This document shows, in pieces, positions 166 through 18,889 of a stretch of 64,000 nt of DNA. A model generated the notes under the pieces. That model saw nothing but the letters and a program-made list of their open reading frames with translations, had not been told where the DNA came from and did no database searches. A program made the translations under genes and the position numbers. Positions within the stretch are counted from its first letter, which is position 1. Each line of letters begins with the position of its first letter. Location of the stretch: the NCBI GenBank assembly GCA_965203355.1, contig OZ241889.1, positions 32,001 to 96,000 on the forward strand, in the 5' to 3' direction. This DNA is from Candidatus Latescibacterota bacterium. Its GTDB lineage: Bacteria > Latescibacterota > UBA2968 > UBA8231.

Positions 166-1275
166 TCAGTGGCCACAGCCGATTCTAACTTCCCGCCCCT
201 CGGCGGCCGAGCGGTACAGCCCGTCGAGGGCGGCTATGACGTTGAGCACTTCTTCTTTTTTTATCGACAACTCGGCCCGCCCTTCAAGCACCTCGACGAA
301 GTGGGCCGCGGCTTTCCAGTGCCCCGAAAAGGGCACCGAGGGGTCGGGCGGCACCTTGATCCGCGTGTCGGCCTGATAGCGGCCCAAGGTGCCGATAAAA
401 GTGAGCGGATTAAACGCGAGGCCGCCCTTGGTGCCCATGATGAGGGTGCCGCCCGTGCCATCGGGCAAATGGGCCGCCCAACTAGCCCGAATGCTGATAG
501 TGGCGTCGTTTTCCAAGCGCAAAAAGCCAGCGGCCATATCCTCGACGTCGTATTCGCCGCTGTCGTAGTTCCGGGGCGCAAACACGCCCTCTGGCGCACC
601 GCTGTCAGTCAGCGACGTGACTACATCTTCATCTTCGCGTTGGTCGGCCAATTTGGTGTACGTCGCGCCCGCAGCGGCCACCACTTTGGGATTGCCCATG
701 ATCCACAGCAGGGCGTCGAGCGCGTGGACGCCCAGGTCGTAGAGGGGGCCGCCGCCCGAGGCTTCTTTCATGTGGAAGCGGCCCCAAGTGGGCACGCCGC
801 GACGGCGGAAAGCCGAGGTTTCAGCGTAGTACATCTGGCCCAAGTGCCCGCTATCAGCGAGTTGCTTGGCCGCGGTATTACTACCGGAGAAACGGCTCGT
901 CTGGGTGACAAATAGATGGCGGCCGGCCGCCTCGGCTGCTGCGTACATAGCGACTGCATCGGCGCGACTGGCGGCAACGGGTTTTTCGCAAAAGACGTGG
1001 GCCCCGGCTTGGAGGACCGCTTCGGCGTAGGCTCGATGCGAGACATTGGGGGTGCAGACGGAGACGATGTCGGGACGCAGTTCATCCATCATGCGCCCAC
1101 AGTCGTCATACGCGCGGGGGATGCCGTGGCGGTCGGCGGTCTGTTGGGCCTTGGCCAAGGTGTGATTGAACACGCCGACTACTTGTACCGCCGGAGCCAA
1201 CGCCAGCCAAGCGGGGATGTGCGCAACGTTGGCGATCATGCCCGTGCCTACGATGGCGACTTTGTATGGGGCCAT
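166..1275 (-). CDS. Gfo/Idh/MocA family oxidoreductase
   Basis: KVAIVGTGMIA Rossmann motif, CEKP motif, GGGPLYDLGVHALD; start trimmed to MAPYK behind an AAGGA RBS. Confidence 0.9.
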   Translation of the reverse strand: MAPYKVAIVGTGMIANVAHIPAWLALAPAVQVVGVFNHTLAKAQQTADRHGIPRAYDDCGRMMDELRPDIVSVCTPNVSHRAYAEAVLQAGAHVFCEKPVAASRADAVAMYAAAEAAGRHLFVTQTSRFSGSNTAAKQLADSGHLGQMYYAETSAFRRRGVPTWGRFHMKEASGGGPLYDLGVHALDALLWIMGNPKVVAAAGATYTKLADQREDEDVVTSLTDSGAPEGVFAPRNYDSGEYDVEDMAAGFLRLENDATISIRASWAAHLPDGTGGTLIMGTKGGLAFNPLTFIGTLGRYQADTRIKVPPDPSVPFSGHWKAAAHFVEVLEGRAELSIKKEEVLNVIAALDGLYRSAAEGREVRIGCGH

Positions 1276-1708
1276 ATTTTTCATCCTTTTGCAGCGAGGT
1301 AAAATCACCGGCGGAGGAATCACGCGCGCCAAAGCCACGCACTCGCAGTTGTAGGCCGAAAGCGAAGACGCCGCTACCCGAAGTTCGTTCTCTTGGCTGA
1401 TGATCTTTTTTTGCATAATGGTTTGCTCCCGTTGGGTAGTCAAGGGCTATGAGAAAATATGAAGGGTGAGGATGCTTTGATCACACAAGAATTGAATGAC
1501 GAACATAATTTCACTATTCTCAGGGCCAGCGGCTAAACCCACTTGAAAGGACAACCACTATGGGCGCGACCGATGTCGACGTTATGACAAAACAAATCGA
1601 CTAAACTCATCGAGAGGACTTTTGGCTGGCTAGGTGTTAAGATGGCGACCCCTAAATTCAAAAAGGAGGCCCTCTCCTTCGTATAGAACTCACGTTAAAA
1701 GGAGGCAC

Positions 1709-3937
1709 ATGATTTACTACGCACATTCCCTAGAAGGTCAGTCGAAGGAACACTGGCAACCGCTACGGGAACACCTGCTCAAGGTCCAAGACGAAGCGGT
1801 GATACGGGGAACCAAGTTCGGTGTTGGCAAAGCCGCGGGATTGGCTGGGCTTTTGCACGATCTCGGCAAGTACACAGAAGCGTTCCAGCAGCGTCTAGCG
1901 GATGGAGCAAGCGTTGATCACGCCACAGCCGGAGCCAAACAAGTCTGTGATTTTACAGTAACAGAAAAACAAGATCGGGCCATAGCACAGTTGCTCGCTT
2001 ACGCCATCGCCGGGCACCACGGGGGTCTGCCGGACATGCACAGTAGTACCGGCTCAGACAATTCGCTTGATGAACGGCTAAAAAAGACGCTTGATCCGCT
2101 TGACTCGACTTGGGAGTTAGAAATTCAGCCTAACGCTACTGGTCTTTGGCCTAAAGGGTTCAAATTGGAGAAGGCGGCAGTAGCGTTCCAGCTTTCCTTC
2201 CTGACACGGATGATCTTCTCGTGTCTTGTCGACGCAGACTTCCGCGACACCGAGCGATTTTACGCTGCGGCAAAAGGTGAGACCATTGACCGTGCCTGGC
2301 CGGTGCTTCCCGAAATAATCGACCCGCTACGCAATAGACTTAACAACCACTTCGCCGGTTTTCCCAGCGAAGGCAAGGTCAATCGCCTGCGCCGCGAAAT
2401 TCTGGAATATGTTCGGACTCAAGCGGATTGCTCCCCGGGCCTATTTTCGCTCAACGTACCGACAGGTGGCGGCAAGACGCTGACTTCCCTCGCCTTTGCT
2501 CTCGACCATGCCAAAGCACACGGGCTTGAGCGCATCGTCTATGCGATCCCTTTTACTTCAGTAATAGATCAGACTGCGGAAATTTTTCGCGATGTGCTAG
2601 GAAAAGATGTAGTCCTTGAACATCATTCGGCGATTGACGAAACCAAGTTCACAAATCGGGCGGGAGCCGATAAGCTACGGCTTGCCATGGAGGATTGGGG
2701 TGCTCCTATCGTCGCAACTACCAACGTCCAGCTCTTTGAAAGCCTATTCGCCCATCGCCCATCGCGGTGTCGCAAGTTGCACAATTTGGCTCGTGCGGTC
2801 ATTGTCTTAGACGAAGCGCAGACTATCCCCCTACATGTACTACGGCCTTCAGTTGCTGCTCTTGATGAACTAGGTCGTAACTATGGTTCATCTATCGTGC
2901 TCTGCACCGCAACACAGCCAGCACTCAAGGCATCTGAGTTCAAAGGTGGCTTTGAAAGAGTCCGTGAACTGGCACCGGACCCGCCCAGCTTGCACCAGCA
3001 GCTTGCCCGCGTCACCATCGGCCATAAGGGTACGCTCGGCGACGACGACCTATGCAAGACCCTCGCCCAAACGGAGCAAGGTATGGTTATTGTCAACAGC
3101 CGGAAACACGCCTTGGACCTTTTCCGGCAAGCCTGCGAAGCAGACATGGAAGGCGTCGTACATCTGAGTACGCGGCAATACGCAGCACATCGCCGCCGCA
3201 TCCTTGAGGGTGTACGCCAGCGGCTAAAGACAGGCAGGCCGTGTCGGTTGGTTGCCACTTCGCTGGTAGAGGCAGGCGTCGATCTGGACTTTCCAAGAGT
3301 TTGGCGGGCCGAGGCCGGGCTCGATTCGATTGCCCAAGCTGCTGGACGGTGCAATAGAGAGGGAAAACGAGAGGTTGCAGACAGTATCGTTACTGTGTTC
3401 CAGCCAGCGGAACATTCCAGTCCGGCCGAGTTGAGCCAACTCGCCGGAGATATGGAACGCATCATGGGTCGCCACGACGACCTACTATCGACAGAAGCTA
3501 TAAAAGACTACTTCAAAGAGGTGTACTGGCGCACAGACGCAAGACTTGGCGATGATTTCTTGCAAAAGTTCAAGATTCGCAAGGACGGCACTGGCACTTC
3601 TTTCTCCTTCCGCGAGGTTGGCGAGGAGTTCCGTCTGATTCGGAACGGTATGCTGCCGGTGATCGTCGCCCGAGAAGAGGAAGCGCACAAGGCTTTGCGC
3701 TATCTCGCTTACACCGAACGGCCCGGCAGCGTGGCCCGGCGGCTCCAGCCTTACATCGTGCAAGTTCATCCTCGTTCTTTAGGACAGCTTCTAAAAAACA
3801 ATCACGTTTGTTTTGAGGCACAGAGACGCTTCGGAGACCAGTTCGCCGTTCTCTTCACTAAGAGTCTCTATCGAGAAGATGTCGGTCTCCTTTGGGAGGA
3901 CGCGGATACGCTCGACAATGAGGTGATGATAATATAA
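1709..3937 (+). CDS. cas3: CRISPR-associated helicase/HD nuclease Cas3 (type I-C)
   Basis: YYAHS, LHDLGK (HD), PTGGGKT, DEAQ, QAAGRCNREG motifs; AGGAGG RBS at 1700-1705. Confidence 0.97.
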   Translation: MIYYAHSLEGQSKEHWQPLREHLLKVQDEAVIRGTKFGVGKAAGLAGLLHDLGKYTEAFQQRLADGASVDHATAGAKQVCDFTVTEKQDRAIAQLLAYAIAGHHGGLPDMHSSTGSDNSLDERLKKTLDPLDSTWELEIQPNATGLWPKGFKLEKAAVAFQLSFLTRMIFSCLVDADFRDTERFYAAAKGETIDRAWPVLPEIIDPLRNRLNNHFAGFPSEGKVNRLRREILEYVRTQADCSPGLFSLNVPTGGGKTLTSLAFALDHAKAHGLERIVYAIPFTSVIDQTAEIFRDVLGKDVVLEHHSAIDETKFTNRAGADKLRLAMEDWGAPIVATTNVQLFESLFAHRPSRCRKLHNLARAVIVLDEAQTIPLHVLRPSVAALDELGRNYGSSIVLCTATQPALKASEFKGGFERVRELAPDPPSLHQQLARVTIGHKGTLGDDDLCKTLAQTEQGMVIVNSRKHALDLFRQACEADMEGVVHLSTRQYAAHRRRILEGVRQRLKTGRPCRLVATSLVEAGVDLDFPRVWRAEAGLDSIAQAAGRCNREGKREVADSIVTVFQPAEHSSPAELSQLAGDMERIMGRHDDLLSTEAIKDYFKEVYWRTDARLGDDFLQKFKIRKDGTGTSFSFREVGEEFRLIRNGMLPVIVAREEEAHKALRYLAYTERPGSVARRLQPYIVQVHPRSLGQLLKNNHVCFEAQRRFGDQFAVLFTKSLYREDVGLLWEDADTLDNEVMII

Positions 3938-3940
3938 AAT
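3912..3940 (+). promoter_or_regulatory. Putative sigma70 promoter in the cas3 3' end driving the mini-array RNA
   Basis: TCGACA (3912-3917), 17 bp, TAAAAT (3935-3940), 13 nt before the degenerate repeat. Confidence 0.55.
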
Positions 3941-3953
3941 GTATAGTAGTAGG

Positions 3954-4040
3954 GTCGCTCTTGCATGGGGCGCGGATTGAAACTACATGTATTACGTACA
4001 CACACATGCCTGTCGCCTCTAATAAAGGAGGGGCGACAGG
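3954..4040 (+). ncRNA. crRNA-like regulatory RNA (degenerate repeat, 28-nt spacer, partial repeat folded into a terminator)
   Basis: GTCGCTCTTGCATGGGGCGCGGATTGAAAC at 3954-3983 resembles the array repeat; spacer 3984-4011; GTCGCCTCT at 4012 resembles a repeat 5' end. Confidence 0.75.
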
Positions 4041-4053
4041 TTTTCTTTATTTT
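4009..4053 (+). terminator. Intrinsic terminator ending the mini-array transcript
   Basis: Stem CCTGTCGCCTCT / AGGGGCGACAGG, 8-nt loop, followed by TTTTCTTTATTTT. Confidence 0.8.
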
Positions 4054-4058
4054 CTTCA

Positions 4059-4086
4059 TTGACAGGATAAATTTTCTATATATATT
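4059..4086 (+). promoter_or_regulatory. sigma70 promoter of the cas5-cas8c-cas7 operon
   Basis: Perfect TTGACA at 4059-4064 and TATATT at 4081-4086 (16-bp spacing) in an AT-rich stretch before the cas5 RBS. Confidence 0.75.
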
Positions 4087-4114
4087 AAGTATAGCACTGA
4101 CAAGGAGTTCATCC

Positions 4115-4774
4115 ATGTTTGGAGTACGTCTGCGCGTGGGAGGCCAATACGCCTGTTTCACGCGACCAGAAATGAAGGTCGAGCGCGTGTCTTACGATGT
4201 AATGACGCCTTCAGCGGCACGCGGTATCTTGGAAGCCATTCACTGGAAGCCAGCTATAGTCTGGCGCATTGACCGCATTCACGTCCTCAAGCCAATTCGG
4301 TTCCAGTCGATCCGGCGCAACGAAGTCGGCAAAAAAATTCCCATGGGGTCCGTCCGCACAGCAAAAAACAGGGGTTCTATCGAGAAGCTCTATACCAAGG
4401 TTGACGAAGAGCGCCAGCAACGCGCCGCTACTGTATTAGCCGACGTAGAGTACGTCATTGAAGCGCACTTTGACATGACGGACGAAGCGGGCGAAAGCGA
4501 TAATGTGGGCAAACACCTCGACATCTTCAATCGCCGCGCCAGGAACGGGCAGTGCTTTCACCAGCCCTGTCTTGGAACGCGAGAATTTGCCGCAGACTAC
4601 ACACTCATCGAGAACGACGACCTGCCGCCAGCGATTGACGAAAGCCGCGACTTGGGCTGGATGCTCTACGATATTGACCACGCAAACGAGCGACAACCGC
4701 TTTTCTTTCGCGCCAGAATGAAACAGGGCGTTGTCGAAATTCCTTCTTCCAATTCGCCGGAGGTGTTGCAATGA
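4115..4774 (+). CDS. cas5: Type I-C Cas5 (Cas5c/Cas5d, crRNA-processing)
   Basis: ACFTRPEMKVERVSYDVMTPSAARGILEAIHWKP and QPCLGTREF; AAGGAG RBS before ATG 4115. Confidence 0.97.
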   Translation: MFGVRLRVGGQYACFTRPEMKVERVSYDVMTPSAARGILEAIHWKPAIVWRIDRIHVLKPIRFQSIRRNEVGKKIPMGSVRTAKNRGSIEKLYTKVDEERQQRAATVLADVEYVIEAHFDMTDEAGESDNVGKHLDIFNRRARNGQCFHQPCLGTREFAADYTLIENDDLPPAIDESRDLGWMLYDIDHANERQPLFFRARMKQGVVEIPSSNSPEVLQ

Positions 4775-6540
4775 GCATTCTATCTTCTCTTGAGCGGGCC
4801 TATCACCGGCTTGCAAAAGAGAATAAAGTGCCGCCGATTGGCTACTCCAATGAGCGGATTGACTATTGCGTTGTCTTGGACACTACAGGCCAGCCCGTGG
4901 GAAAGCCTGTGGACCTACGGGACCATTCAGGGAATAAACCTGTCGCACCCCGGCATTCGGTACCAAGATCAGAGAAGCGGACAGTCAAGATTGTGCCAAA
5001 CTTTCTCTGGGACAAAACATCGTATGTGCTTGGCGTAGTAGAAGACGACAAGCCATCAGAGCGGGCTGCGAAAGAGCATGAGGCTTTTCGGGACCGGCAC
5101 CTCGACGCCCTACAACACAAAAGCGACGCAGGTCTTGTGGCTTGTTATCGTTTTTTGCAATGGTGGAAGCCAGAGTACTTCGATATACGCGGCTGGCCAG
5201 ACGTAATGAAGGGGGCCAATGTGGTGTTCCGGCTAGATGGAGATACAGACTTTATTCACGACCGGCAGGCTGCACGCCAACTATGGGTCTCTCAAATGAA
5301 TCAGTCCCATAGATCGCAAGCCGTTTGTTTGGTGACCGGCAAGAGCTCCCCTATCGCCAGACTGCATCCTTCGATCAAGGGAATACGTGGTGCGCAGTCT
5401 ACTGGTGCGTCCATCGTCTCTTTCAATCTCGACGCCTTTGAGTCTTATGGGCATGAACAGGGCGATAATGCGCCCGTAAGTGAAGATGCTGCCGCTGCCT
5501 ACACAATCGTGCTCAACCATTTCCTCCGTACCAACGAAAACAAGGTCCAACTCGGAGACGCTTCGACTGTATTCTGGGCCGATAGCTCGAATGCAGAAGC
5601 CGCGGCGCAATCCGAAGCCATATTTTCCTTCGTCCTCAATGACACCAACGACGAAGACGACGCGATAAACGATCAGCGCATCAAGTCTATCCTTGAAAAA
5701 ATGGCAAGGGGGCGCCCTATGGAGGAAATCCGCCCAGAGTTGCCCCAAGGGGTGCGCTTTTATGTGCTTGGCTTGGCTCCCAACGCAGCGCGTATCTCGA
5801 TTCGCTTTTGGCTAGAGGACGACTTTGCGACGCTGGCCGAGCATATCAGCTATCACTATCGGGATATGCGCCTTGACCCACCACCACGCCAAGAACAACC
5901 AAGCGTCCGGCTTTGCCTGCGTGAGACCGCTACGACGAAGGTAAAAAATCCATACGAACATATCCCCCCCCAACTCGCTGGGGAGATGCTACGCGCTATC
6001 CTGACAGGTCGCTCTTATCCGCAGACATTGTTATCCACGATCCTCATGCGTCTGCGGTCGGACAAGACCATAACGGGCCTGCGCGTAGCCTTACTCAAAG
6101 CCGTGCTCTGCCGCAAGTGGCGCACGGCTGGCCACTTAACAAAGGAGGATGACCTCGTGTCTCTTGATCCTACAAATGTCGATCCTGGCTACTTGCTCGG
6201 TCGGCTATTCGCCTGTTTTGAGTACGCACAAAAGCAGGCCCTCGGTCGCAATGTCAACGCCACGATATGCGATAAGTACTACGGGGCGGCTTCGGCGACG
6301 CCGCGTTCTGTATTTCCCATCCTGCAACGCAACGCCATGAACCACTTGTCCCGTCTGCGGAAAGACAGGCCTGGAGCACATCGCTATATCGACAACGCAA
6401 TCACCCAGATTTACGGAGGTGCCGCGCCTGATAAACTATTCGTGCCAACGCTCAGCATGGATGCCCAAGCGCTCTTTGCCATCGGCTACTATCACCAGAA
6501 AAACGCTTTCTATACTAAAAAAGAAAAGGAGAACGAATAA
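4771..6540 (+). CDS. cas8c: Type I-C large subunit Cas8c/Csd1
   Basis: [46 protein letters not shown] motifs; operon position. Confidence 0.96.
6157..6540 (+). CDS. cas11: Internally translated small subunit Cas11 within cas8c
   Basis: AGGAGG at 6143-6148 then in-frame GTG at 6157 starting (M)[18 protein letters not shown], the known I-C Cas11 N-terminus pattern. Confidence 0.8.
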
Positions 6541-7484
6541 TGACCGCTCTTAACCATCGCTACGATTTCGTCTATTTATTTGACGTTACCAACGGCAATC
6601 CCAACGGCGACCCGGACGCAGGCAATCTCCCGCGCCTCGACCCGGAAACGAACCAAGGTTTGGTTACGGACGTCTGCCTCAAGCGCAAGATACGCAACTT
6701 CGTTGAACTGGCTAAAGGCGACGAGTCCGGCTATGCGATCTACGTCCAAGAAGGCGCCCTGCTCAACGAGCAACATCGGAAGGCGTATCAAGTTGTGCGC
6801 CCCGATGACGATAAGGTCGAGAGCAGCAAGAAACTAAGCCCAAAAAACGACGAGGAGATGGACGACCTGCGTGGCTTCATGTGCAACAATTTCTTTGACG
6901 TGCGTACCTTCGGCGCGGTAATGAGCACCGGCATCAACTGTGGCCAAGTACGCGGGCCAGTCCAGATGACTTTTGCGCGTTCCATCGATCCGATCGTACC
7001 GCTCGAAGTGTCTATCACGCGCATGGCAGCTACCACCGAAAAGGAAAAGGCGGAACGCGAGCAGGCTAGCAACGATAACGATAGCGACGAGCGGACCGAG
7101 CACCGCACCATGGGTCGCAAACACATTGTGCCCTACGGGCTATATCGGGCGCATGGCTTCATCTCCGCCAAGCTCGCCGAACGCACCGGCTTTTCGCCGG
7201 AAGACCTTGAGGTCCTCTGGAATTCCTTGACGCAAATGTTCGAGCATGACCACTCGGCCGCTCGTGGCGAAATGGTTGCCCGTCGGCTCATTGCCTTTAA
7301 GCACGCTAGTGCCTTGGGCAACGCGCCCGCGCATAGGCTCTTTGAGCGGGTACGTGTGGAGCGCACAGAAGCGAATGGTAGCGAGGGCATCCTGCCTCCT
7401 GCTCGCAGTTTTGCTGACTATCGCGTGGAACTCGACGTAGGCGATATGCCAGCAAATATCGAGGTCGTTGATCTAAGCACCTAG
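6540..7484 (+). CDS. cas7: Type I-C Cas7/Csd2
   Basis: [45 protein letters not shown] motifs. Confidence 0.97.
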
Positions 7485-7515: not shown

Positions 7516-8193
7516 ATGATGACAAGTGAAGTGCAGTTCGGGCAACCACCTCCTGTGCAGGGAATGGAGCCGATACCAGTGTCGGCATTGCAACATGCGG
7601 TGTACTGCATGAGACAATGCGCTCTAATCCACTTGGAACGACTTTGGGAGGAAAATCGGTTTACCGCTGAAGGTCGAGTGCTGCATCAAACCATTGACGA
7701 AGCAGGGCATCGGCGCAAGGCAGGTGTGCTTCAGATGATGTCACTCCCGATCTACAGCATCCGGCTCAATCTTACAGGGGTCGCCGATATGGTTGAGTTC
7801 CACGAAAGCCAGACAAGTATTACCCCGTTCCCGATCGAGTTCAAACGAGGCAAGGCCAAAGTACATCGCGCCGACGAGGTGCAACTCTGCGCCCAGGCAT
7901 TGTGCCTTGAAGAAATGACCGGTACAGCAGTGCCGATGGGAGCTTGTTACTACGGACAAACCAAACGGCGGAAAGAAGTGTCTTTTGATGCCGAGCTCCG
8001 CACCCTCACCGAGACAACAGTCGAACAAGTAGCCGCGCTCTTCGCTCAAGGCCGCACACCCTCAGCCGAGTACGAAGCAGCCAAGTGCCGCGGGTGTTCG
8101 CTGCTCGACCAGTGTCGTCCCAAGGCGATGGAGCGTTCGGTTCTCGCTTGGCGAACGCGGGCCCTAACATCACACCTTGCAGAATCTGGATAA
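7516..8193 (+). CDS. cas4: CRISPR-associated exonuclease Cas4 (start may be 7564)
   Basis: YCMRQCAL, PIEFKRG, QLCAQALCLEEM, C-terminal CxxCSLxxxC Fe-S cysteines. Confidence 0.95.
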   Translation: MMTSEVQFGQPPPVQGMEPIPVSALQHAVYCMRQCALIHLERLWEENRFTAEGRVLHQTIDEAGHRRKAGVLQMMSLPIYSIRLNLTGVADMVEFHESQTSITPFPIEFKRGKAKVHRADEVQLCAQALCLEEMTGTAVPMGACYYGQTKRRKEVSFDAELRTLTETTVEQVAALFAQGRTPSAEYEAAKCRGCSLLDQCRPKAMERSVLAWRTRALTSHLAESG

Positions 8194-9233
8194 TGCCCAT
8201 GAGGCGATTGCTCAATACACTCTATGTTACTACGCCCGGATCACGTCTGACCAAAGATGGCGAGAACTTGGTCGCGGAAGTAGAAGGTGAGGAGCGAGCG
8301 CGGGTTCCGTTCCACATGTTGGGATCCGTGGTGGTTTTCGGTAGCATTTATATATCTCCACCTTTGATCCAAGCCTGTGCCGCTGGTGGTATCGTCTTAG
8401 TACTCTTGGACCGATTCGGCCGATTCCAAGCCCGAGTCACGGGACCAGTCTCCGGCAACGTACTGCTGCGGCGCGCACAATATAAAGCCAGCGACGAGCC
8501 AGAAGAGATCATTCGCAGTATTCTCGTCGGCAAGATCGCCAATCAGCGAAGTGTCCTACAAAGAGCACAGCGCGATTATGGGGATCAGCTTGAACCTCCT
8601 GGCCATAAAAATATGTCCGCCGCGACGAATCGCCTTCGGCAGATTGTGCAACGCATCAACAACGGCCACGATAGTATAGATAGATTACGCGGTTTTGAAG
8701 GCGAGGCTGCACATATCTATTTTTCGGTCTTTGGTCGCCTGATCCGCGTACCCGAACCAGAGATGGCATTTGTCGGTCGTAATCGGCGACCGCCACGTGA
8801 CCCTATAAATGCTCTGCTTTCATTTCTCTACACTCTTCTTGTCCACGACTGTAGCTCTGCCGCCGAGAGCGTTGGTTTAGATCCTGCCGTGGGGCTCTTT
8901 CACAGAGATCGTCCCGGCCGGCCGAGTCTTGCGCTAGATCTTATGGAAGAATTGCGACCAGTCTTGGCCGATCGGCTTGCATTATCGCTAGTAAATCGTC
9001 GGCAAGTTAGTGCAAAAGACTTCCAGACCCGAGAAGGCGGTAGTGTTTCAATGAGCGACGACGCTCGCAAGACAGTTCTCACTGCTTGGCAGGAACGAAA
9101 GCGCGTAGAGAGGACTCACCCTTTTCTTGGGGAAAAGGCACCGCTCGGTTTGGTTCCATATCTCCAAGCACAGTTGCTAGCTCGGCACCTTCGAGGTGAT
9201 TTAGACGCTCACCCGCCATGGTTATGGAAATAA
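8193..9233 (+). CDS. cas1: Type I-C Cas1
   Basis: LNTLYVT, GNVLLRRAQY, LRGFEGEAA, NALLSFLY, DLMEELR; TAATG overlap with cas4. Confidence 0.97.
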   Translation: MPMRRLLNTLYVTTPGSRLTKDGENLVAEVEGEERARVPFHMLGSVVVFGSIYISPPLIQACAAGGIVLVLLDRFGRFQARVTGPVSGNVLLRRAQYKASDEPEEIIRSILVGKIANQRSVLQRAQRDYGDQLEPPGHKNMSAATNRLRQIVQRINNGHDSIDRLRGFEGEAAHIYFSVFGRLIRVPEPEMAFVGRNRRPPRDPINALLSFLYTLLVHDCSSAAESVGLDPAVGLFHRDRPGRPSLALDLMEELRPVLADRLALSLVNRRQVSAKDFQTREGGSVSMSDDARKTVLTAWQERKRVERTHPFLGEKAPLGLVPYLQAQLLARHLRGDLDAHPPWLWK

Positions 9234-9264
9234 GTCGCCCCTCGCATGGGGCGTGAATTGAAAC
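9234..9264 (+). repeat. Solitary degenerate CRISPR repeat between cas1 and cas2
   Basis: GTCGCCCCTCGCATGGGGCGTGAATTGAAAC starts right after the cas1 TAA; differs from the array repeat by two substitutions and one deletion. Confidence 0.9.
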
Positions 9265-9276
9265 AAACAAAACAAA

Positions 9277-9567
9277 ATGATGGTTCTCGTTACATATGAT
9301 GTCTCGACGACATCTGATGGCGGCACACAGCGGTTACGACGTGTTGCTAAGATGTGTCGCGACTTTGGACAAAGAGTGCAGTTTTCAGTATTTGAGATTG
9401 AGGTGGACTCGGCTCAATGGACTGCTTTGAAGACGCGACTTGAAGCGATTATTGATCCAAAAACCGATAGTCTTAGGTATTATTTTCTCGGTGCGAATTG
9501 GGAGCGGCGCATAGAGCATGTCGGTGCCAAGGCGACTGTCGATTTGAACGGAACACTGATTGTCTGA
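9277..9567 (+). CDS. cas2: CRISPR-associated endoribonuclease Cas2
   Basis: VLVTYDVST, RLRRVAK, GQRVQFSVFE, DSLRYY. Confidence 0.97.
   Translation: MMVLVTYDVSTTSDGGTQRLRRVAKMCRDFGQRVQFSVFEIEVDSAQWTALKTRLEAIIDPKTDSLRYYFLGANWERRIEHVGAKATVDLNGTLIV

Positions 9568-9753: not shown

Positions 9754-18889
<9,136 letters not shown>

Follow-up and report, generated by a model that had tools for sequence, protein, structure and literature searches.

Several CRISPR-Cas systems direct their own effector onto promoters within the cas locus by means of RNAs that resemble CRISPR RNAs (crRNAs). Here, we compare with these systems a one-spacer, degenerate repeat unit that lies between cas3 and cas5 of a type I-C system from a Candidatus Latescibacterota bacterium (assembly GCA_965203355.1, contig OZ241889.1, positions 32,001 to 96,000 of the forward strand; this whole stretch of 64,000 nucleotides (nt) is hereafter called the window). 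Autorepression by the regulator CreR has been shown for subtypes I-B, I-E and V-A and is predicted to sense both the crRNA load and anti-CRISPRs, and the same study mentions type I-C creA-like elements found by manual search (Figure S7; 10.1101/2023.03.10.532045). A regulatory mini-array of subtype I-F1 has also been validated, for which Cascade is needed for repression whereas Cas3 is dispensable (Shmakov et al., PMC10120712). In subtype I-C itself, units directly before cas5c have been validated by small-RNA sequencing, Cas5c cleavage and gfp reporters. Their crRNA-like RNAs are 48-50 nt long, carry an 11-nt handle, end in a 3' hairpin loop, repress TTC-flanked promoters ~21-22-fold by pairing over 16 bp with a mismatch at position 6, and supervise cargo defence systems, namely Nezha, Gabija and 'CRISIS' (10.1101/2024.12.27.630466). 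CreTA and CrePA modules likewise use a crRNA-like RNA to guide the effector onto a promoter inside the cas locus (PMC12737573; 10.1101/2024.01.05.574328), and phage mimics aimed at I-C loci have been reported (10.1101/2024.10.29.618823). The original prediction for this locus, made from the sequence alone, had named crRNA-like cas regulators as described in other class 1 systems; this is too narrow, since the I-C cargo units are validated as well.

We consider it probable, at roughly 70%, that the unit in the window encodes a type I-C Cas-regulating crRNA-like RNA of the CreR type which guides Cascade to the cas5 promoter. Like CreR (10.1101/2023.03.10.532045), it is a degenerate mini-CRISPR without a toxin gene, in which the handle of the first repeat-like segment (psiR1) and the 3' hairpin of the second (psiR2) are kept, and its spacer pairs partially with a site beside the cognate protospacer adjacent motif (PAM) at the promoter of the effector cas operon. 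It is unlike the CreR examples in its subtype, in a psiR2 that appears to double as an intrinsic terminator, in a seed mismatch at position 3 and in a target that lies over the -10 box, downstream of the spacer. With the I-C cargo units it shares the subtype, the position before cas5c, the 11-nt handle, the 3' hairpin, the TTC and a pairing of ~16 bp in which position 6 is mismatched. Those units, however, repress a cargo promoter between cas3 and the unit, with a target that abuts the -35 (10.1101/2024.12.27.630466), whereas the window has no cargo at this place and its target lies downstream of the unit, at the cas5 promoter. The I-F1 mini-array is similar in that its short spacer is complementary in part to a cas promoter and mismatched at positions 6 and 12, but differs in subtype, and the term 'I-C' is absent from the accessible text of PMC10120712. 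Unlike CreTA and CrePA, the window has no toxin gene; CreTA requires one under the repressed promoter, whereas the window's promoter precedes cas5.

The literature searched yielded no I-C CreR experiment, although I-C units may be listed in paper supplements, which lay outside that search; in the accessible text of 10.1101/2024.12.27.630466 the words autoregulation and autorepression are absent. Self-regulation of this kind is already known, and what is new here is a cargo-free, terminator-insulated I-C unit whose proposed target is the -10 of the cas5 promoter. If the proposal is true, the locus offers a clean type I-C case in which a crRNA-like RNA lets Cascade repress its own promoter, and possibly a sensor for anti-CRISPRs directed against I-C Cascade, in a layout compact enough to suit reporter tests. 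A search of viral_contigs for a phage mimic of the regulator gave no exact match to a 24-nt handle-plus-spacer stretch.

A mini-array unit and its match at the cas5 promoter

After cas3 come, in order, a promoter-like site, psiR1, a 28-nt spacer (psiS), a hairpin terminator, a second promoter-like site and cas5 (Table 1). The final codons of cas3 overlap the first promoter-like site (stop codon at 3935-3937), and from that promoter to the target over the second -10 box the whole layout fits within 180 nt. The mini-array promoter-like site scores 10/12 as a sigma-70-like site, the second best in 1200-4400, with a predicted start at ~3947-3949; it is surpassed in this region by the cas5 promoter-like site, which scores 11/12. 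psiR1 folds into a stem of 6 bp with a loop of 5 nt and leaves the handle single-stranded; this arrangement of hairpin and tail is also that of the array repeat (GTCGCCCCTCGCGTGGGGGCGTGGATTGAAAC, 32 nt), in which the stem has 7 bp, the loop 5 nt and the tail 11 nt. The segment ATTGAAAC is identical between psiR1 and the array repeat at 8/8 positions, and the psiR1 handle, CGGATTGAAAC (3973-3983), shares 10 of its 11 bases with it. At the other end of the spacer, the 13-bp hairpin that contains the 5' end of a repeat has a free energy of -23.9 kcal/mol (z = -6.0) and was also matched by a terminator scan. psiR2 is predicted to have two roles, as the RNA's 3' hairpin and as an intrinsic terminator. 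The distance from the end of the psiR1 handle to the cas5 ATG is 131 nt, compared to 47-170 nt in most related loci.

Table 1. Positions of the mini-array unit, its target site and the surrounding cas genes, numbered from the first letter of the window.
Feature	Positions	Strand	Details
Mini-array promoter-like site TCGACA-17-TAAAAT	3912-3940	+	-35 at 3912-3917, -10 at 3935-3940
psiR1, repeat-like, GTCGC...ATTGAAAC	3954-3983	+	30 nt vs 32-nt array repeat
psiS, spacer-like	3984-4011	+	28 nt vs 32-37 nt for array spacers; positions 1-17 pair with target
psiR2, repeat 5' end GTCGCC (4012-4017) inside 13-bp hairpin, then T-run	4008-4053	+	hairpin 4008-4041
cas5 operon promoter-like site TTGACA-16-TATATT	4059-4086	+	-10 hexamer 4081-4086
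TTC PAM	4074-4076	+	between -35 and -10 of the cas5 promoter-like site
Protospacer-like target TATATATATTAAGTATAG	4077-4094	+	covers -10 box and predicted transcription start
cas3	1634-3937	+	767 aa; open reading frame (ORF) list; Pfam matches to Cas3 C-terminal, DEAD and HD domains
cas5	4115-4774	+	ORF list and Pfam; ribosome-binding site AAGGAG 4102-4107
cas8c	4771-6540	+	ORF list and Pfam
cas7	6540-7484	+	ORF list and Pfam
cas4	7516-8193	+	ORF list and Pfam
cas1	8085-9233	+	ORF list and Pfam
cas2	9277-9567	+	ORF list and Pfam
CRISPR array	9754-17578	+	119 repeats (<=4 substitutions), 118 exact; spacers 32-37 nt

The target begins 93 nt downstream of the spacer start and lies on the same strand. 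Spacer and target are identical at positions 1, 2, 4, 5, 7-11, 13-15 and 17 and mismatched at 3, 6, 12, 16 and 18, so that, with every sixth base ignored, 13 of the 15 pairing positions match. PAM, strand and the best promoter-like site of the region coincide, and the parts of the unit are all present and in register. Every element named in the original prediction (both promoters, the repeat at 3954-3983, the spacer, the terminator, the TTC and the site at 4077-4094) was recovered where it had been placed, and its pattern of mismatches over the -10 of the cas5 promoter-like site proved exact.

To assess whether such a match might arise by chance, we compared it with several backgrounds. When sixth bases are ignored, no second site with at most 2/15 mismatches exists in the 64-kb window, whichever strand is read (the spacer itself excepted), and the next three sites have 4/15 mismatches each. 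When shuffled spacers were compared with the 93 nt preceding cas5, requiring the same score and a TTC, a fraction of 2e-5 of 200,000 mononucleotide shuffles reached the window's score, as did 1.7e-3 of 100,000 dinucleotide shuffles, the latter being a conservative null because an 18-mer allows few distinct dinucleotide shuffles. Among mock spacers drawn from the 151 I-C loci surveyed below, 19/15,100 had a TTC-flanked site of equal quality somewhere in the locus they came from, and the proportion was similar for AT-rich mock spacers with at least 12/18 A+T (11/11,113). The chance rate of such a match is therefore about 0.1% per spacer. Duplication of the spacer was considered as an origin of the target; judged by eye, the flanks of the two look unrelated.

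Related units in type I-C loci

We surveyed the regions upstream of cas5 in relatives identified through Cas5, taking the best 80 of 590 confirmed relatives (596 stretches) in genome_contigs and the best 80 of 586 (598 stretches) in metagenome_contigs. Loci with at least 300 nt upstream of cas5 were usable, 151 in all including the window (denoted below by L and a number). Within 3 kb upstream of cas5 we sought handle-like motifs with at most 2 substitutions and an intact GAAA core; looking for self-matching 10-mers at every position of 2.6 kb per locus produced too much noise, and the target search was therefore restricted to handle-adjacent spacers. Handle-like units were found in 49/151 loci (52 units), or 48/150 loci and 51 units without the window. 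TTC-flanked targets paired over ~16 nt and mismatched at positions 6, 12 and 18 were present for 29 of the 51 other units (30/52 with the window). Thus, about a third of the Cas5-related I-C loci carry a unit before cas5, and more than half of these units have a recognisable PAM-flanked target. Seed matches of 10/10 (positions 1-5 and 7-11) beside a TTC in the same locus were found for 24/52 units compared to 19/15,100 mock spacers, and matches of 9/10 only, the class to which the window belongs, for 6/52 units compared to 183/15,100 mock spacers. TTC, which the original prediction had given as the I-C PAM, is the one used by 29 of the 51 related units and by the validated cargo units (10.1101/2024.12.27.630466).

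A mismatch profile was drawn from 28 distinct spacer-target pairs, from which the window was left out. Mismatch rates were 0.86, 0.75 and 0.82 at positions 6, 12 and 18, respectively, 0-0.04 at positions 1-5 and 7-11, 0.11-0.21 at positions 13-16 and 0.61 at position 17, and from positions 19 to 24 they were 0.54-0.75, near the random expectation of 0.75. This suggests that I-C regulatory units pair over ~16 nt with every sixth base free, and the pattern in the window agrees with this profile. Co-variation between related spacers and their targets also occurs: in L063 and L072, positions 7 and 14 are changed in spacer and target alike. L063 also holds two tandem solitary repeat units with the same spacer (2750-2980), both of which match a TTC-flanked target at 2723 on the minus strand.

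Most loci have their target shortly past the cas3 stop, 157-283 nt upstream of the spacer and on either strand; in the loci inspected, it is followed by promoter-like sequence, a small ORF of 24-56 aa that has a ribosome-binding site, the unit and cas5. Such small ORFs include L145 2795-2869 and those of L103, L144, L149, L152 and L122, as well as L062 3725-3874, L137 2610-2777, L014 3733-3891 and L134 512-682. One group of them is 24-28 aa long with a basic N-terminus and an end in EPP, IPP or DP, and the others are hydrophobic and 35-56 aa long; none of eight searched against Pfam had a match at E <=0.1. They are candidates for CRISPR-repressed toxins (CreT-like), of which we found no description for subtype I-C in the parts of the literature consulted. 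In five further loci (L070, L080, L114, L115 and L131) the target lies 1.5-2 kb upstream, with intervening genes in the two inspected, L070 and L080, an arrangement that resembles the I-C cargo units (10.1101/2024.12.27.630466).

The window's unit might accordingly be read as a CRISPR-repressed toxin-antitoxin (CreTA-like) or cargo-supervising module, as in most of these related loci, where a small ORF or cargo genes separate the targeted promoter from the unit. The gaps in the window, 16 nt from the cas3 stop to psiR1 and ~21 nt from the predicted cas5 transcription start to its ATG, fit no gene: neither the stretch between cas3 and the unit nor that between the unit and cas5 has room for an ORF or a cargo gene. 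With no such room, we reject both the CreTA and the cargo reading for the window as highly improbable. Unlike most related loci, the window has neither small ORF nor cargo, and its targeted promoter-like site leads directly into cas5. The sole locus resembling its layout is L134 (340-500), whose target has the window's offset of 93 nt downstream from the start of the spacer, shares its strand and is mismatched at 6, 12 and 18; there, the unit is upstream of the small ORF and cas3, and the target stands before both.

For the remaining 22 of the 52 units, no target was detected in the 6-9 kb fetched, whichever PAM was allowed. They are those of L001, L003, L007, L010, L025, L027, L050, L055, L078, L082, L083, L098, L101 (2 units), L108, L116, L124, L135, L136, L141, L142 and L148. 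That units without a detectable target are common before cas5 would suit a purely cis-acting role, in which the unit serves as a Cas5-processing site and terminator parting cas3 from the transcription of the Cascade genes, or as a sponge for Cas5 or Cascade, with no DNA targeting. The strong terminator after the unit fits such a role, as does a second solitary repeat, between cas1 and cas2, that has no target in the window. It would leave unexplained both the PAM-flanked match with its covariation (see below) and the PAM-flanked partial targets of the 30 units that have them. We regard this account as quite improbable; it is also compatible with a CreR-type regulator.

Close relatives and the weight of the match

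If the unit regulates cas5, spacer and target should have changed together in close relatives, and covariation had been suggested as a check. Only one locus exceeds 72% Cas5 identity among the best 80 of genome_contigs, and none exceeds 71% among the best 80 of metagenome_contigs. This locus, L001, comes from a Latescibacterota metagenome-assembled genome; its Cas5 is 93% identical, and it retains a homologous unit whose spacer differs at 5/27 aligned positions, with 4 extra nt after the handle and an unchanged mini-array -35 hexamer. L001 also contains two inverted, 95% complementary copies of a 1.18-kb element with a 360-aa ORF (2018-3195 and 4983-6160), which interrupt cas3 and cas8c and look like an insertion sequence. 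As cas3 and cas8c are broken, the I-C system of L001 is inactivated, and L001 is therefore weak evidence either way.

Among public sequencing runs, X3 and X4 contain the window sequence itself and may be where it came from; none of the runs listed is recorded as RNA. In X5, a run labelled sponge metagenome, a contig ~92% identical spans 3602-4600 unbroken, with 49 substitutions and 34 gap letters. Its spacer has two changes, at position 8 (3991 A>G) and position 18 (4001 C>T), and its target also has two, at position 8 (4084 A>G) and position 12 (4088 A>T). The sole change at a pairing position is thus mirrored in the partner, and the remaining substitutions in spacer and target fall on flipped positions. 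A 16-nt insertion follows directly after 4091 (position 15). The TTC PAM is unchanged, the -35 hexamer of the cas5 promoter is kept as the insertions and deletions read, and the mini-array promoter has an unchanged -35 and a single -10 change, at 3938. A further substitution, 4018 T>C, turns psiR2 into GTCGCCCC, as in the array repeat, and so makes it more repeat-like. By a rough estimate that allows one substitution per 15 positions in each partner and favours transitions, coincidence of both site and base at position 8 would have a probability of 0.04-0.1. In a further run, X7, a sequence ~87% identical spans the region with just 21 gap letters, and the 34-nt segment that bears the target is therefore probably present. 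The suggested check thus gave a divided answer: position 8 changed from A to G in both partners, once, whereas the closest genome relative is without the target.

Mismatches in the seed usually lower Cascade binding, as seen in type I-E. Several observations weigh against a regulator acting at the cas5 promoter. Seed position 3 is mismatched in the window, with a C in the crRNA facing an A in the target strand, and a C/A mismatch recurs at position 16; a seed mismatch is present in just 5 of the 29 other targeted units. Spacer and target are both AT-rich, with TA repeats. L001 is without the 34 nt bearing the PAM, the target and the -10, and a search of 8.6 kb of that locus in either spacer register, allowing at most 1/10 seed mismatches and any PAM, found no target. 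The covariation in X5 is one event and, as a single case, is suggestive and not decisive. Finally, the spacer is just 28 nt long and the 3' hairpin has 13 bp compared to 6-7 bp in the repeat, so that loading of the RNA into Cascade is an assumption.

Some of these points would also be expected if the unit were real and its match at the cas5 promoter a coincidence, the unit being a decaying or orphan solitary repeat unit or having its target elsewhere in the genome. Targetless units, L001 included, show that a unit may stand before cas5 with no target in the fetched locus, the position-3 mismatch and the AT-rich composition are in keeping with a coincidence, and our search covered 64 kb, so that a more distant genomic target is possible. 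Coincidence is nevertheless unlikely, given the low chance rate, a PAM, strand and -10 position that all fit, and nothing better in the 64 kb; the compensatory change at position 8 in X5, whose other changes sit at neutral positions, also speaks against it. Sequence evidence, as far as it reaches, supports the central claim of the original prediction, that a crRNA-like unit aims Cascade at the cas5 promoter, through the anatomy of the unit, the rarity of the match, the unit's place in an I-C class that is widespread and a single compensatory change.

A proposed feedback loop and the remainder of the locus

How might such a unit work? The promoter within the end of cas3 would transcribe the one-spacer mini-CRISPR, and Cas5 would cleave the psiR1 hairpin just before 3973, leaving the 11-nt handle. 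The repeat-derived hairpin terminator would set the 3' end. If the RNA is trimmed in the loop, handle, spacer and half of the hairpin would together amount to ~50 nt, like the RNAs of the validated I-C units. Cascade loaded with this RNA may then recognise the TTC and pair over ~15-17 nt across the -10 and the start of the cas5-cas8c-cas7 promoter, forming a short R-loop that would block RNA polymerase while being too short to license Cas3. The terminator would at the same time insulate cas5 from upstream transcription, which would leave the promoter-like site before cas5 as the chief driver of Cascade synthesis and give the loop the character of negative feedback. By analogy with CreR in other subtypes, from which we infer this last step, crRNAs from the 119-repeat array or anti-CRISPRs may draw Cascade off the regulator and so raise cas expression.

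A further-reaching reading, which we consider doubtful, is that the feedback loop is a recent and self-contained invention of this lineage, in which a segment of ~34 nt made an autorepressor of an already insulated repeat unit. The imperfect seed would here be kept on purpose: in a relative, the C/A mismatch at position 3 was retained while position 8 co-varied. This would give weak, easily out-competed repression that suits an array of 119 repeats. The solitary repeat between cas1 and cas2 would be a further Cas5 site, and repeat-derived elements would split the cas transcript into separately controlled modules.

The window contains a complete type I-C system on the + strand, with the genes in the order cas3, cas5, cas8c, cas7, cas4, cas1 and cas2, followed by the array. 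Its G+C content is 59.5%, compared to 27% for 4042-4114, and an Rfam search of the window gave no match reaching gathering thresholds. The second solitary repeat occupies the gap between cas1 and cas2 (9234-9264). It is 31 nt long and near-identical to the array repeat, forms a stem of 6 bp followed by TGAATTGAAAC as its 11-nt tail, and abuts the cas2 start directly; no partial target for it, PAM-flanked or otherwise, was found within the window. Cas5 may process the cas mRNA at this repeat, or the repeat may be left over from recombination; the corresponding gap in L001 holds a more degenerate sequence. Within the array, blocks of several repeat-spacer units are duplicated (12925-13224, 13516-13815 and 14504-14803), two of them being 100% identical and the third 84% identical.

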